Part shown: one piece after another, positions 10,423 through 13,782 of the stretch
How positions within the stretch are numbered: the first letter of the stretch is position 1
Layout of the letters: each line of letters starts with the position of its first letter
Virus record (IMG/VR): IMGVR_UViG_3300032305_002284
Coordinates: 1 to 59,441 of that record
DNA: 59,441 bases
DNA from: a virus
Taxonomy: Duplodnaviria > Caudoviricetes
Reading direction: 5' to 3' (one strand)
Translations under genes and position numbers: made by a program
Notes under the pieces: generated by a model
Told to the model about the DNA's origin: nothing
Databases searched by the model: none
The model's input: the letters and a program-made list of their open reading frames with translations, nothing else

Positions 10423-10507
10423 GCGGGCTTGGTGAAATGGTAGACACAAGAGACTTAAAATCTCTCGGCTAAAAGCTGTACCGGTTCGAGTCCGGTAGCC
10501 CGCACCA
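10423..10507 (+). tRNA. tRNA-Leu(TAA)
   Basis: Cloverleaf; agaga-ctTAAaa-tctct; long variable arm; GTTCGA; CCA. Confidence 0.95.
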
Positions 10508-10589
10508 AATTTTTTTGATCTATAAAATAGATCACTGTATTTTAGTTGAGTGCTCTAGTTTTATAAATAGCAGGAAAGGAATTCCTAAT

Positions 10590-11162
10590 ATGAAAAAAAC
10601 TAAGAGTGACGCTTGGTATCTTGCAATGCGTACCAAAAAAGAAAGAGGCACAAATTTAAATGGTTATTCTAAAGCCAAACAATTAGGATTACCAAAACCG
10701 GAAATTTCAGAGGAATCTCATTTAAAAAGAAGTAAAGCTAATCAAAGACCTCATACAGAAAATACCAAAAGGAAAATAAGTGAAGCGCGAATAAAATTTT
10801 TACATGAAAATCCTGATATGGTACCATATAAACTGAATCATTATTCAAAAGGTAGATCATATGCCGAAGAATATTGGAAAGCTATATTAGATTCAAACAA
10901 TTTGATTTTTCAAGAACAATATCAAATTGGTCCATATCAATTAGATTTTGCGTTTATTGAACTAAAAATTGATCTTGAAATTGACGGGGATCAACACTAC
11001 TTAGATAAAAGAATTGTTGAAAGTGATAAAAGAAGAAATTTATATCTTAAAGAACTTGGTTGGACCATAATTCGTGTCAAATGGTCCGAATATAAAAGGT
11101 TGACAAATAAGAAAGAATATGTTAATATGATTTTGGGACAAATTAGAGGACCCGTAGTTTAG
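10590..11162 (+). CDS. Putative homing endonuclease (NUMOD3-like N-terminus + DUF559/Vsr-like nuclease)
   Basis: HTENTKRKISE; YQLDFAF...EIDGDQH...DKRRNLYLKELGWTIIRV; TATAAATA at 10562. Confidence 0.8.
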   Translation: MKKTKSDAWYLAMRTKKERGTNLNGYSKAKQLGLPKPEISEESHLKRSKANQRPHTENTKRKISEARIKFLHENPDMVPYKLNHYSKGRSYAEEYWKAILDSNNLIFQEQYQIGPYQLDFAFIELKIDLEIDGDQHYLDKRIVESDKRRNLYLKELGWTIIRVKWSEYKRLTNKKEYVNMILGQIRGPVV

Positions 11163-11219
11163 TGGCCAAACAGAAGACTTTTAATCTTTATAACGTGGGT
11201 TCGAATCCCACCGGGTCCT
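11148..11219 (+). tRNA. tRNA-Lys(TTT), CCA not encoded
   Basis: ggacccg/cgggtcc acceptor; gaaga-ctTTTaa-tcttt; gtggg-TTCGAAT-cccac. Confidence 0.85.
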
Positions 11220-11265
11220 CTAATTTGCTTCATTTGTTTAACCTTTAATATGAAAGATATATGTA

Positions 11266-11445
11266 ATGTCAGGTGATTATAGGATTCAATTTTTGGATAA
11301 TTCTGGTTGGCGTACTTGTGTTACCTTTACTGCTCTAGCCGATGGTGCTATGGTAATGAGGGAAATGCAACAAGCACAGGTTTATTATCCTGAGTTTCGA
11401 ATTCGATGTGTCGATGAAAATGATCGACTGATTGATATGCTATAA
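11266..11445 (+). CDS. Hypothetical protein (59 aa)
   Basis: MSGDYRIQFLDNSGWRTC...DRLIDML; fills the spacer between tRNAs. Confidence 0.55.
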   Translation: MSGDYRIQFLDNSGWRTCVTFTALADGAMVMREMQQAQVYYPEFRIRCVDENDRLIDML

Positions 11446-11491
11446 ATAAGTTCATACAGTGAGATCTAGTCAATGACTAGATCTCATATAA

Positions 11492-11568
11492 TCCTCGATA
11501 GCTCAGCTGGTAGTAGCAAATGGCTGTTAACCATTAGGTCGTTCGTTCGAATCGAACTCGAGGAGCCA
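11492..11568 (+). tRNA. tRNA-Asn(GTT)
   Basis: tcctcga/tcgagga; aatgg-ctGTTaa-ccatt; CCA. Confidence 0.93.
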
Positions 11569-11692
11569 GGTCGCACAAAAACTGTTCCTATCCGGTTTTG
11601 TGCATTGTGTAGATAGGATACGCTCTTACTGTCTGGGGGTAAGAGAAGAGATAAACTTGCTATTGAAATCAATGGTGGGTTAGCCCAGACCA
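11569..11692 (+). ncRNA. Candidate structured ncRNA (two pseudoknots, 3' CCA)
   Basis: Four perfect 7-8 bp helices in a crossing arrangement plus one hairpin; no ORF. Confidence 0.6.
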
Positions 11693-11697
11693 AATTT

Positions 11698-11773
11698 GCT
11701 TCCTTAGCTCAGCTGGTAGAGCATTCGGTTGATAACCGAAAGGTCGATGGGTCGGGACCATCAGGAAGCACCA
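11698..11773 (+). tRNA. tRNA-Ile(GAT)
   Basis: gcttcct/aggaagc; ttcgg-ttGATaa-ccgaa; atypical T-loop gtcggga; CCA. Confidence 0.88.
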
Positions 11774-11778
11774 AGTTT

Positions 11779-11853
11779 GCCGGATTAGCACAGCGGTAGT
11801 GCAATCGCCTTGTAAGCGATAGGTCGGGAGTTCAATCCTCTCATCCGGCACCA
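11779..11853 (+). tRNA. tRNA-Thr(TGT)
   Basis: gccggat/atccggc; atcgc-ctTGTaa-gcgat; CCA. Confidence 0.95.
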
Positions 11854-11859
11854 TATTTT

Positions 11860-11949
11860 GGACGTGACATCGGGTGATGACAAGGGCCTTATATTCCCTT
11901 TGCAGCTGATTACTGCTTGGATAGGATTCGAATTCCTACACGTCTACCA
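11860..11949 (+). tRNA. Atypical tRNA-like gene, probable anticodon TAT, long variable arm
   Basis: ggacgtg/cacgtct acceptor; tagga-TTCGAAT-tccta; 4-nt D-loop; CCA. Confidence 0.65.
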
Positions 11950-11951
11950 AA

Positions 11952-12051
11952 ATCAAAGACTACCAGGAATAAATGGGCTCTCCTGGTTCAAGATGACTGC
12001 TAGTAAAACTGATAAATCCCACCCATGGTTTGCAGGGCTCTGGTCTTTGAT
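11952..12051 (+). ncRNA. Candidate structured ncRNA
   Basis: Closing stem atcaaagact/ggtctttgat; accagga/tcctggt hairpin; loop atggg can pair with cccat. Confidence 0.45.
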
Positions 12052-12058
12052 ACTTTTT

Positions 12059-12133
12059 GCGGGTGTGGTATAGGAGATGTGCCCTAGCCTTCCAAGCTAG
12101 AGAGGACCGGAGCGTTGCCGGCCACCCGCTCCA
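12059..12133 (+). tRNA. tRNA-Gly(TCC), non-canonical T-loop
   Basis: gcgggtg/cacccgc; ctagc-ctTCCaa-gctag; T-loop agcgttg; CCA. Confidence 0.85.
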
Positions 12134-12137
12134 TTGT

Positions 12138-12206
12138 GGCGCTAGAACAGGTGTTCCGATTGGTCTCATAAGCCAATACGTGGTGGTTCGATACCACCTG
12201 GCGCCT
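12138..12206 (+). tRNA. Compact tRNA with CAT anticodon (Met or Ile2), CCA not encoded
   Basis: ggcgcta/tggcgcc; gaac-aggt-gttc D arm; attggt-ctCATaa-gccaat; ggtgg-TTCGATA-ccacc. Confidence 0.7.
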
Positions 12207-12227
12207 TATAAATAAGTTTACTAATAC

Positions 12228-12264
12228 GGAAGAGTGGCCGAGTGGTTGAAGGCTCTAGTCTTGA
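12228..12264 (+). pseudogene. 5' half of a tRNA-Ser(TGA), truncated right after the anticodon
   Basis: ggaagag-tg-gccgagtggttgaaggc-t-ctagt-ctTGA, then unrelated AT-rich sequence; no matching 3' half seen. Confidence 0.75.
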
Positions 12265-12343
12265 TTTTCTATTTGTATAAATAAGATATGGTTCACGGGA
12301 TTGCAGTCCCCAACCATTCTAGAATGCAAACGGAGATTCCAGC

Positions 12344-12988
12344 ATGTCACTATTTATTTGTAACTATTGTTTACGCACCCATCCAAATCCCGGTGCTAAA
12401 GCAAAACACGAAAAACATTGTAAACTTAATCCTGATTATGTAAAGGCTTTCAGAAGCCCATTTGCAGGCGTCAAAAAAGGTAATATTCCATGGAATAAAG
12501 GTAAAAAATCTTCTATTCCTGCTTGGAATAAAGGAATAAAAGGATCTACAAGTGGTAGAGCCTCATCAGAAGAAAAAGAACTAAAAAGAATACAAAAAAT
12601 AAGTGAAAAAGCAAAAATAAACAATGGTGGTTATAGAAAAGGATCTGGGAGAGGTAAAAAGGGTTATTATAAAAATATATGGTGTGATAGTTCTTGGGAA
12701 CTAGCATTTGTTATATACAATATAGATCACAATATACCTTTTTTGCGAAATACAAAGTTTTTTCTTTATAAATATAAAGGTATTACAAAAAAATATTATC
12801 CTGATTTTATAATCAATGATACATATTATGAAATAAAGGGGTATTATTCCGATCAGTTTCAATCAAAACTTGACCATTTCAATGAAAAAATATGTATTTT
12901 AGATAAACAAAGTATAAAAAAATATACTGATTATGCCATGGCAAAATATGGTAAAGACTATACCAAATTATATCATTTTGGAGAGTGA
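12344..12988 (+). CDS. Putative homing endonuclease (Zn-finger-like N-terminus, PWNKG repeats, PD-(D/E)xK nuclease)
   Basis: CNYC...HEKHC; PWNKG/AWNKG; DSSWE...YYPDF...EIKG; TATAAATA at 12276. Confidence 0.78.
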   Translation: MSLFICNYCLRTHPNPGAKAKHEKHCKLNPDYVKAFRSPFAGVKKGNIPWNKGKKSSIPAWNKGIKGSTSGRASSEEKELKRIQKISEKAKINNGGYRKGSGRGKKGYYKNIWCDSSWELAFVIYNIDHNIPFLRNTKFFLYKYKGITKKYYPDFIINDTYYEIKGYYSDQFQSKLDHFNEKICILDKQSIKKYTDYAMAKYGKDYTKLYHFGE

Positions 12989-13070
12989 ACCGGACAGGCG
13001 TACCGGCACCGCCTTGAAAGCGGTTGGATCCTGCAAAGGATTGGGCTTCGAGTGCACCCGCTCTCCTCCA
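12980..13070 (+). tRNA. tRNA-Ser(TGA), apparently 8/4 acceptor/T-stem type
   Basis: ggagagtg/cgctctcc; accgc-ctTGAaa-gcggt; long variable arm; CCA. Confidence 0.85.
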
Positions 13071-13078
13071 GTTTATTT

Positions 13079-13168
13079 GGAATGGTGGCTGAGTGGCCTA
13101 AAGCTCACGGTTGCTAACTGTGCGAACCTTAACTGGTTCCGTGGGTTCGAATCCCACCCATTCCTCCA
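13079..13168 (+). tRNA. tRNA-Ser(GCT)
   Basis: ggaatgg/ccattcc; cacgg-ttGCTaa-ctgtg; long variable arm; CCA. Confidence 0.93.
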
Positions 13169-13192
13169 TATTTTACAAAAAAGGATATAAAT

Positions 13193-13357
13193 ATGGCTGG
13201 TTATTCTATTGATGTTCTTAAGAAGGCAGCTTTTGAAGACGAGCTTATGAATATCTTAAACTTAGAAGTTCTAGAGAATAGAGATGAAACTTGGATAATC
13301 ATTCATGATTATTTCAAGGCTCGACTAAAAGAGCTTGACAAAGCGACTAAACGATAG
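13193..13357 (+). CDS. Hypothetical protein (54 aa)
   Basis: aagga RBS; MAGYSIDVLKKAAFEDELMNIL... Confidence 0.55.
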   Translation: MAGYSIDVLKKAAFEDELMNILNLEVLENRDETWIIIHDYFKARLKELDKATKR

Positions 13358-13363
13358 TATAAT
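13335..13363 (+). promoter_or_regulatory. Consensus sigma70-type promoter upstream of tRNA-Pro
   Basis: TTGACA-N17-TATAAT. Confidence 0.8.
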
Positions 13364-13372
13364 ACATTTTAA

Positions 13373-13450
13373 CTGCGCGTCGCCTAGCCTGGAATGGCAC
13401 TTCGTTTGGGACGAAGAATAACGGGAGTTCAAATCTCTCCGCGCAGACCA
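13373..13450 (+). tRNA. tRNA-Pro(TGG)
   Basis: ctgcgcg/cgcgcag; cttcg-ttTGGga-cgaag; CCA. Confidence 0.93.
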
Positions 13451-13454
13451 TTTT

Positions 13455-13530
13455 GGGAGGTTAGCTCAGTTGGCAGAGCGTCACGTTTACACCGTGAATG
13501 TCATCGGTTCAAACCCGGTACCTCCTACCA
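13455..13530 (+). tRNA. tRNA-Val(TAC)
   Basis: tcacg-ttTACac-cgtga; CCA. Confidence 0.93.
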
Positions 13531-13537
13531 TTTTTAT

Positions 13538-13608
13538 TGCCTGATAGTTTAATGGTAGAACGCCGGTTTTTGGTGCCGGTTGTGTTGGTTCAAATCCAGC
13601 TCGGGCAT
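13538..13608 (+). tRNA. tRNA-Gln(TTG), CCA not encoded
   Basis: tgcctga/tcgggca; ccggt-ttTTGgt-gccgg. Confidence 0.88.
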
Positions 13609-13618
13609 TTTTAGTTTA

Positions 13619-13701
13619 GCCTCAATGGTGGAATTGGCAGACACGCTGGATTTAGGTTCCAGTGCTCCGGCGTGGGGGTTCAAGTCCCTCTTGAGGTACC
13701 A
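13619..13701 (+). tRNA. tRNA-Leu(TAG)
   Basis: ctgga-ttTAGgt-tccag; long variable arm; CCA. Confidence 0.93.
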
Positions 13702-13706
13702 TATTA

Positions 13707-13782
13707 GGGGAATTAGCTCAGTTGGTAGAGCGTTAGCTTTGCAAGCTAAATGTCATCGGTTCGATTCCGATATTCTCCACCA
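13707..13782 (+). tRNA. tRNA-Ala(TGC)
   Basis: G3-U70 pair; ttagc-ttTGCaa-gctaa; CCA. Confidence 0.95.

Follow-up and report, generated by a model that had tools for sequence, protein, structure and literature searches.

A New Family of CCA-Ended, Tandem-Pseudoknot Small RNAs Encoded by Phages

The IMG/VR virus record IMGVR_UViG_3300032305_002284, which was analysed in its entirety (59,441 bases) and is called the window hereafter, encodes at positions 11569-11692 of its plus strand a small RNA of a phage family (about 120-160 nt) that had not been catalogued before. The element starts with the first base after the CCA of a tRNA-Asn gene, ends with ...GACCA, and is composed of two H-type pseudoknots in tandem, in each of which a hairpin loop is paired to a sequence located further 3'. 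We regard the structural part of this statement as virtually certain, and the RNA family as a new one, outside every known kind. Both limits of the element had been proposed in an earlier note made from the letters of this DNA, and they were borne out by a base-by-base reading and by the gene-calling program ARAGORN.

Results

Fold of the Element

A 4-nt leader (GGUC, 11569-11572) separates the CCA of tRNA-Asn from pseudoknot 1. The stem a/a' of this pseudoknot (11573-80 with 11596-603) is a perfect 8-bp helix that encloses strand b (11586-92); from within this hairpin loop, strand b forms with 11612-18 the perfect 7-bp helix b/b'. The linker UACG (11619-11622), invariant in 24/24 sequences of the alignment described below (A4), joins pseudoknot 1 to pseudoknot 2. 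The 7-bp stem c/c' of the latter (11623-29 with 11639-45) closes a 9-nt loop made of U11630 (loop 1), strand d and G11638, and strand d, in the loop of hairpin c, forms the 7-bp helix d/d' (11631-37 with 11684-90). Loop 3 of pseudoknot 2 begins with a nearly invariant A-rich run (AAGAGAU then AAA, 11646-11655), carries a hairpin, P3 (11656-11679; 10 bp including six G-U, loop AAAU), and ends with the linker UUAG (11680-11683) that leads to strand d'. The first C of the terminal CCA (11690-11692) is also the last base of d', so that the unpaired remainder is CA only. All these features are on the plus strand. The four crossing helices, which the earlier note had placed at these coordinates, are each perfectly complementary; the wobble-rich hairpin that it had drawn at 11654-11681 is also present, with limits better set at 11656-11679.

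As had likewise been stated, the element is not a cloverleaf, and ARAGORN makes no call on it. Its nested (pseudoknot-free) fold has an energy of −39.5 kcal/mol (z = −2.67), equalled by 3/200 shuffles. RNAfold pairs the leader (11569-11572) with 11688-11691, an arrangement that relatives do not keep and that competes with d/d', the covarying helix. That such helices are unlikely to arise by chance, another claim of the earlier note, is upheld by shuffle tests and, decisively, by the covariation found over 24 distinct homologues.

Collection of the Family

Besides the window, the family comprises 34 IMG/VR contigs (the 33 core-bearing stretches of the final IMG/VR motif scan and the truncated L334), and the alignment A4 holds its 24 distinct core sequences. 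A search with an exact 23-mer returned one other contig, with a tRNA cluster 91% identical to that of the window; its element differs in one loop base, yet the tRNA-Asn upstream has a different sequence. The loci reached via the adjoining S-adenosylmethionine decarboxylase gene provided near-identical copies and two distant members (L017 and L018), in which the strands of c/c' and d/d' are changed in sequence with their complementarity kept. Successive motif scans of IMG/VR then yielded 26 true members among 54 stretches, followed by L318, by five more and by two more. The other 28 of these 54 stretches, as well as L319, were dropped as false positives, since the helices are absent from them.

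In the family, the order of the parts from 5' to 3' is as follows: an optional first hairpin, pseudoknot 1, UACG, the first strand of stem c (7 nt), U, strand d (7 nt), G, c', AAGAGAU, NAA(R), hairpin P3, UUAG, strand d' and CA. All 24 sequences are free of insertions and deletions from UACG through AAGAGAU, and again from the G that closes P3 up to the last base, and the helix lengths and one-base loops of pseudoknot 2 are invariant, as a measured, enzyme-read shape would predict. The 26 invariant columns of A4 are clustered at the junctions; U11630, G11631 and G11636-39 are invariant, AAGAGAU is constant except for one A-to-G change (1/24 sequences), and G-UUAG-CC is constant except for one U-to-A change (1/24). 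The terminal CCA is found in 23/24 sequences, with an A/U-rich run after it, and it is encoded also in the members that have no nearby tRNA gene. The stacking and minor-groove geometry of H-type pseudoknots is well established; when it is applied to this element, the four helices could stack as a single rod with the CCA at its far tip, beside the invariant U-G step, and the A-rich AAGAGAU would cross the minor groove of c/c'.

Covariation

The homologues called for by the earlier note, and the covariation to be looked for in them, were both found, in the form of 24 distinct cores in which pseudoknot 2 covaries. Standard pairs occupy 335/336 cells of pseudoknot 2 in A4 (99.7%), and changes on both sides occur at 10/14 pairs (61 cells). 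The covariation score is 0.618 versus 0.229 ± 0.021 for shuffles, with 0/500 shuffles scoring as high, a count which is not a probability because the sequences of A4 share ancestry. When the 3' partner was slid by 1-3 columns, pairing fell to 34-44%. Taken separately, helix c/c' is paired in 99.4% of cells, with both-sided changes in 6/7 pairs, and helix d/d' in 100%, with both-sided changes in 4/7 pairs and the remaining three constant. These slid controls, and the presence of up to five pair types per pair, leave no real doubt on pseudoknot 2.

Pseudoknot 1 required another approach, MAFFT being unable to align its strands, which are unrelated across lineages and in some of them include an extra hairpin in loop 3. 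We used a script that sought a strand ending at UACG and pairing into the loop of an enclosing hairpin upstream. This arrangement was found in 14/14 representative lineages, rebuilt from unrelated sequences. The shuffles matching the observed score numbered, lineage by lineage and out of 100, 0, 0, 12, 1, 4, 7, 1, 1, 0, 0, 5, 1, 9 and 5; the score of the window's own pseudoknot 1 was reached by 0/100. In L017 and L031, the pseudoknot 1 given by the script differs from the one drawn by hand (by analogy with L018), and the exact strands are less certain there. As for P3, it folds in 21/21 sequences tested, its sequence and its loop being variable. Its closing pair is C-G in 16/16 distinct sequences, and the second and third pairs are formed in 15/16 and 13/16, respectively, with five pair types each.

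Searches for Known Relatives

At gathering thresholds, Rfam 15 recognised tRNAs only. With E up to 10, the region 11400-12400 returned five tRNAs and six matches of 14.7-19.2 bits to microRNA, plastid and long non-coding RNA families, far under their thresholds, which we set aside as noise. As no family reaches its threshold and nothing credible appears at E up to 10, the novelty that the earlier note had made dependent on Rfam stands. A blastn search of 11400-12300 against GenBank phages returned 146 records, and the 40 matches listed begin at query base 286 at least, i.e., they cover the last few bases of the element and the tRNAs; two other family members gave no match to GenBank phages at E up to 1. 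The model R1 matched nothing in the tRNA region of T4 (L082) with E values allowed up to 5, and it brought no new member from 46 sources (474 kb) that include the tRNA clusters of L014-L016 and L019-L028. In samples of alphaproteobacterial genomes, searched without a positive control, the motif pattern was found in 0/401 genomes and R1 in 0/151 of those same genomes. Stretches retrieved with a pattern one N longer than the motif, 115 from bacterial genomes and at least 120 from metagenomes, are taken as chance matches, since none of those examined fits the motif at the right spacing. The papers returned by our text searches contain no description of the element; the motif may already be included in a 2023 catalogue (PMC10690425), in which 8,495 candidate structured RNAs, left without names, were drawn from IMG/VR.

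Source Phage and Genomic Context

The window, an entire IMG/VR record estimated to be 36% complete, encodes a T4-type DNA polymerase (gp43) with at most 49% identity to its cyanomyovirus counterparts, and it therefore belongs to an uncultivated, distant T4-like phage. The source of the element is an uncultivated T4-like lake phage. Its tRNA cluster (10423-13782) holds 12 ARAGORN calls and is split by two endonuclease-like open reading frames (ORFs). The upstream neighbour of the element is tRNA-Asn(GUU) (11492-11568, plus strand; encoded CCA at 11566-11568; called by ARAGORN; 59.1 bits with the Rfam tRNA model), and the downstream one is tRNA-Ile(GAU) (11698-11773, plus strand; ARAGORN), which begins 5 nt past the CCA of the element. 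The motif TATAAATA, which we take to be the late-promoter consensus of T4, was read on the plus strand at 11441-11448, i.e., 44 nt 5' of tRNA-Asn, and this late-promoter-like site may be the start of the transcript that bears the element. Further copies of TATAAATA lie within the tRNA cluster at 12207-12214 and 12276-12283, and all three copies are followed by AGT or AGA. No terminator-like site was found in the window between 11200 and 12300.

Among 19 distinct family members, the nearest upstream tRNA is tRNA-Asn(GUU) in 15, and the element is co-oriented with the tRNAs. In 16/19, a tRNA starts 3-6 nt past the CCA (10-13 nt past TTAGCC), namely tRNA-Ile (seven members), tRNA-Val (seven) or tRNA-Thr (two). 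The distance from the upstream tRNA to UACG is 48-86 nt in 14 members and 225 nt in L017. Within 1.5-2.5 kb of the element, five lineages (L081, L318, the L332 type represented by four contigs, L337 and L338) are devoid of tRNA genes. In L318, L081 and the L332 type, the three of them that were measured, the CCA is followed at 15-25 nt by an ORF start, and two of these ORFs are preceded by a Shine-Dalgarno-like run, located outside the conserved structure. No common downstream gene was found, the ORFs of four contexts being mutually dissimilar (by blastp, E fell below 0.1 for none of the pairs).

The L318 copy sits in a complete phage of 50,562 bases with terminal repeats. Upstream of it, this phage carries a GcrA-like gene (L320:857-1228 (G005); Pfam PF07750, E = 1e-23), which ends about 170 nt 5' of the element, with just a doubtful GTG-started ORF of 74 aa in between. 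GcrA-like regulators are typical of Alphaproteobacteria. A tblastn search of a T4-like carrier of 139 kb and of the window, with the ORFs of at least 60 aa of this 50.5 kb phage as queries, found a single common protein, an SF2 helicase. In close relatives without the element, represented by long contigs from two runs, only three bases separate tRNA-Asn from tRNA-Ile. The presence or absence of the element in relatives and its spread across unrelated phages make it a portable accessory module, tied to no single phage protein or neighbour.

Several tRNA clusters of relatives contain permuted (two-piece) tmRNA genes called by ARAGORN (L015:1073-1462, L017:3677-3996, L018:3330-3693 and L022/L023:16-328), with tags such as ANDNFAVE...LAA; the clusters of the window and of its closest relatives have no tmRNA. 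We take the tags of these related T4-like contigs to be of alphaproteobacterial appearance, and we infer an alphaproteobacterial host. In another relative, the slot that follows tRNA-Asn is filled by a different sequence of about 155 nt (L019:944-1137), with a T-arm-like hairpin and an ...ACCA end followed by a strong palindromic hairpin. This sequence has no match in Rfam, and its fold is no better than that of shuffles.

Presence in RNA Libraries

Of six RNA runs that share words with the stretch, four were compared. A lake-water metatranscriptome contains short contigs that cover 11564-11606 and 11630-11780, and a freshwater metatranscriptome from another study contains a 288-base contig that covers 11524-11691 and ends there. 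The changes of this freshwater contig at 11628 and 11659-61 leave c/c' and P3 paired. Its end at 11691 is a weak hint of an RNA end.

Other Features of the tRNA Cluster

Downstream of tRNA-Ile, positions 11860-11950 hold a CCA-ended tRNA-like gene of 91 nt. Its acceptor stem has 7 bp, its T arm is good, its extra arm is long, and its anticodon loop contains UAU. In the window this gene is missed by both ARAGORN and Rfam, and ARAGORN calls its counterparts in L011, L013, L018 and L024 as a 95-nt 'tRNA-Ile(tat)'. Long extra arms are typical of Leu, Ser and Tyr tRNAs, and a class-II-shaped reader of AUA would be unusual. Between this gene and tRNA-Gly lies a non-tRNA stretch of about 108 nt (11951-12058) with complementary far ends and internal hairpins, for which Rfam gives no match; it is found in G001 and is missing in L011 and L013, where 6 nt separate the two tRNAs.

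The segment 12138-12206 has a weak Rfam tRNA match (31.8 bits, barely over threshold) and is not called by ARAGORN. At 12228-12264 there is the 5' half of a tRNA-Ser(UGA), broken off just past the anticodon as judged from the intact gene of G001. It is followed on its 3' side by an insertion with an endonuclease-like ORF (12344-12988), and then, at about 12980-13071, by a degenerate sequence resembling Ser(UGA), the acceptor stem of which matches and which also has a long extra arm and the loop CUUGAAA. The whole of 12228-13071 looks like a homing-endonuclease insertion accompanied by a replacement copy of the gene. The other endonuclease-like ORF, of the HNH type (10515-11162; PHROG 559), lies between tRNA-Leu and tRNA-Lys, the latter of which begins (11148) within the last codons of the ORF.

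Discussion

We propose, with less than even confidence, that the element is a stable host-directed RNA, matured by tRNA processing, the CCA-ended pseudoknot of which imitates the acceptor end of a tRNA. The element would be transcribed within a polycistronic tRNA precursor and released from it by the tRNA-processing enzymes of the host. The 3' maturation of tRNA-Asn would set its 5' end; on the other side, the RNase P cut at the next tRNA would set the trailer, which exonucleases would trim up to the pseudoknot-protected CCA. The RNA would then accumulate and act in trans on a host factor, not on a phage protein. The part that mimics the tRNA acceptor end would be the two 7-bp helices of pseudoknot 2, stacked on each other, together with the CCA, and the candidate targets are RNase P, the CCA-adding enzyme or a toxin attacking tRNA 3' ends, for which the RNA might serve as a competitor, a decoy or a pseudo-substrate.

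This mimicry of a tRNA end is favoured because of the strict helix lengths, the CCA kept away from tRNAs, the release-ready placement, the lack of a nearby terminator, the spread without a specific common protein, the precedent of RNase P acting on such structures (PMC12710915), and the coverage of the element by contigs from two metatranscriptome studies. That it would be directed at the host follows from the occurrence of the same RNA in the 50.5 kb phage and in T4-like phages that share one detectable protein with it, the SF2 helicase. In a bolder form, which we consider rather unlikely, the element would be the first phage counterpart of the tRNA-like end of plant viruses, i.e., a portable module of about 125 nt that circulates among unrelated phages, and whose CCA terminus is read by the host enzymes acting on tRNA ends, thereby absorbing a defence that disables tRNA 3' ends or diverting RNase P. 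The earlier note had gone as far as a tRNA-mimic or decoy RNA, which is a reasonable inference by analogy. What stands of it is a conserved, structured, CCA-ended non-tRNA RNA gene in a phage tRNA cluster, absent from Rfam 15; the element lacks the free NCCA tail that is one defining feature of the plant-virus structures.

Indeed, a number of observations weigh against the mimicry of a tRNA end. The first C of the CCA faces an invariant G, so that the protruding part is CA only, with no free NCCA, and the base before the CCA is itself paired and covaries (alignment pair 28-87: C-G in 17 sequences, U-A in five, G-C in one and U-G in one). The stack of pseudoknot 2 amounts to 14 bp (7+7), versus 12 bp for the acceptor/T arm of tRNA. 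One of the 24 sequences, L052, ends with CCG and thus lacks the terminal A. No T-loop, conserved anticodon-like loop or identity element was recognised in the family sequences. The many invariant unpaired bases of the junctions (UACG, U, G, AAGAGAU and UUAG) are more than a simple decoy rod needs, and could serve just as well as the core of a catalytic or a ligand-binding RNA. The five lineages without a nearby tRNA imply that tRNA-type processing is no universal route to the ends of the element. Finally, the RNA-library contigs that cover the element may come from contaminating DNA.

These junctions lead to the view that the element acts in cis, possibly as a new class of self-cleaving ribozyme that would cut within the polycistronic RNA to free the neighbouring tRNA or mRNA, which we judge unlikely. 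In its favour, the element begins right after the CCA of tRNA-Asn in the window and follows a tRNA-Asn in 15/19 members; it is compact and rich in pseudoknots, with fixed helix lengths and about 26 invariant junction positions, as small ribozymes are; ribozymes adjacent to phage tRNAs have been described (PMC10879173); and in the three tRNA-free lineages where an ORF starts 15-25 nt downstream, cleavage could shape the 5' end of the mRNA. However, none of the ribozyme families in Rfam 15 matches, even with E raised to 10, the tandem topology is not the nested P1/P2/P3/P1.1 of HDV-like (hepatitis delta virus-like) ribozymes, the distance to the upstream tRNA is variable and five lineages have no tRNA nearby. 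One contig from an RNA library is also continuous from tRNA-Asn through the element, a weak argument as it is maybe DNA-derived. The same junctions could instead belong to a regulatory domain that binds a ligand or a protein, in the way of a riboswitch or of an autoregulatory operator, and controls the expression or stability of what lies downstream, a possibility to which we give still less credit. The preQ1-II and preQ1-III aptamers are H-type pseudoknots with a hairpin in loop 3 and a highly conserved junction, and the plan of the element resembles theirs; furthermore, L318, L081 and the L332 type have an ORF 15-25 nt past the CCA, in two cases with a Shine-Dalgarno-like run. Against such a control, the next gene is a tRNA and not an ORF in 16/19 members, the downstream ORFs of the four contexts compared by blastp are mutually dissimilar, the Shine-Dalgarno-like run falls outside the conserved structure, and no riboswitch family of Rfam matches.

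The portability of the element, which is present or absent among close relatives and common to unrelated phages, would also suit a counter-defence RNA that mimics a pseudoknotted antitoxin of the host, in the manner of the pseudo-ToxI escape from type III toxin-antitoxin systems. Type III antitoxins are pseudoknotted and the escape of T4-family phages from ToxIN is documented (PMC5449768), but we hold this explanation to be very improbable, as the element has no tandem direct repeat, its two pseudoknots are without common sequence, each of them exceeds the antitoxin units (34-45 nt), and no homologue was found in the 401 alphaproteobacterial genomes searched by pattern (151 of them also by model), where a copied host RNA might be expected. 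As to a functionless, decayed remnant of a tRNA or of a two-piece tmRNA, it could account for the location in a tRNA array and for the CCA end, and the clusters of relatives do hold permuted tmRNA genes. This explanation is nevertheless close to refuted by the covariation: compensatory changes keep the four helices over 24 sequences, and this requires that the fold be under selection. Moreover, L017 and L018 have the element alongside a tmRNA gene, ARAGORN and Rfam detect neither tRNA nor tmRNA features in it, and it is also found apart from tRNA genes.

If the mimicry of a tRNA end is true, viral tRNA mimicry would be extended from the RNA viruses of plants to DNA phages, and an RNA would join the phage answers to tRNA-directed host defences. 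If the element is catalytic or ligand-binding, it would represent a new functional RNA class. Either answer would provide a way into the long-standing question of the role of non-tRNA RNAs in T4-type tRNA clusters. The element is unusually easy to test, its fold being fixed by covariation and common to unrelated phages, and its covariance model merits inclusion in the public libraries of RNA families, for the correct annotation of phage tRNA arrays.

Comparison with Known Systems

Among the known systems closest to the element are the plant-virus tRNA-like structures of the TYMV/TMV type (turnip yellow mosaic virus and tobacco mosaic virus), in which the 3' CCA is likewise part of an H-type pseudoknot, formed when the 3'-terminal strand pairs into the loop of a hairpin, and more pseudoknots are stacked just upstream to form a rod of coaxial helices. 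In contrast to these structures, the element is a separate small gene of a DNA phage and not the end of an RNA genome, it has no single-stranded NCCA on a 12-bp stack (only CA is free, on 7+7 bp), it has no analogues of the T, D and anticodon arms and no L shape or cloverleaf, and its extra hairpin (P3) sits inside loop 3. In the element, RCCA occurs in 22/24 sequences (L057 has CCCA and L052 has GCCG), with the R and the first C base-paired, and loop 1 is an invariant U. This U is the base 5' of strand d, the first d/d' pair being an invariant G-C. A U followed by G-C is the usual -1/+1 context of bacterial pre-tRNAs. According to PMC12710915, the pseudoknotted tRNA-like ends of plant viruses are substrates of RNase P, and the bacterial enzyme cuts H-type pseudoknots with a 3' RCCA in loop 1, a U being preferred at the base 5' of the cut.

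Like the element, the HDV-like theta ribozymes are pseudoknotted RNAs located immediately 3' of a phage tRNA gene, with a proposed role in the processing of the tRNA 3' trailer (PMC10879173). Their double pseudoknot is nested, includes P3/L3 and has a catalytic C, as opposed to the tandem arrangement of the element, which has 0-5 nt between strand b and a', where P3/L3 would be. In addition, CCA is encoded in only 4.5% of theta-associated tRNAs, according to PMC10879173, whereas the tRNAs that neighbour the element encode it. The HDV-type families of Rfam do not match the element at E up to 10. Similarly, tmRNA, an RNA of the translation apparatus, resembles the element in its CCA end and its row of H-type pseudoknots, and differs from it in that the element has no tRNA-like domain with a T arm and no tag frame, and receives no tmRNA call from ARAGORN or Rfam; L017 and L018 carry the element and a tmRNA gene together. 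In contrast to type III antitoxins (ToxI-like), the element shows no tandem direct repeats (Tandem Repeats Finder, 0 rows for 11450-11800), and it is flanked by tRNA genes.

By their genomic setting, rnaC and rnaD of T4 (species 1 and 2) are also close to the element; known for decades, they are included in the annotation of the T4 tRNA cluster, which assigns them no function. The analogy with them, drawn in the earlier note, holds as context and not as homology (R1 finds no match there). The folds differ, since rnaC folds with a T-arm-like hairpin, the fold of rnaD is not above shuffles (z = −0.83), and tandem pseudoknots were not seen, by eye only, in either of them. Both are non-tRNA RNAs of 119-139 nt, co-oriented with the tRNAs of a T4-family cluster, and rnaD, like the element, ends with a genome-encoded CCA. 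The element is a new, and far better constrained, example of this kind of non-tRNA RNA gene.

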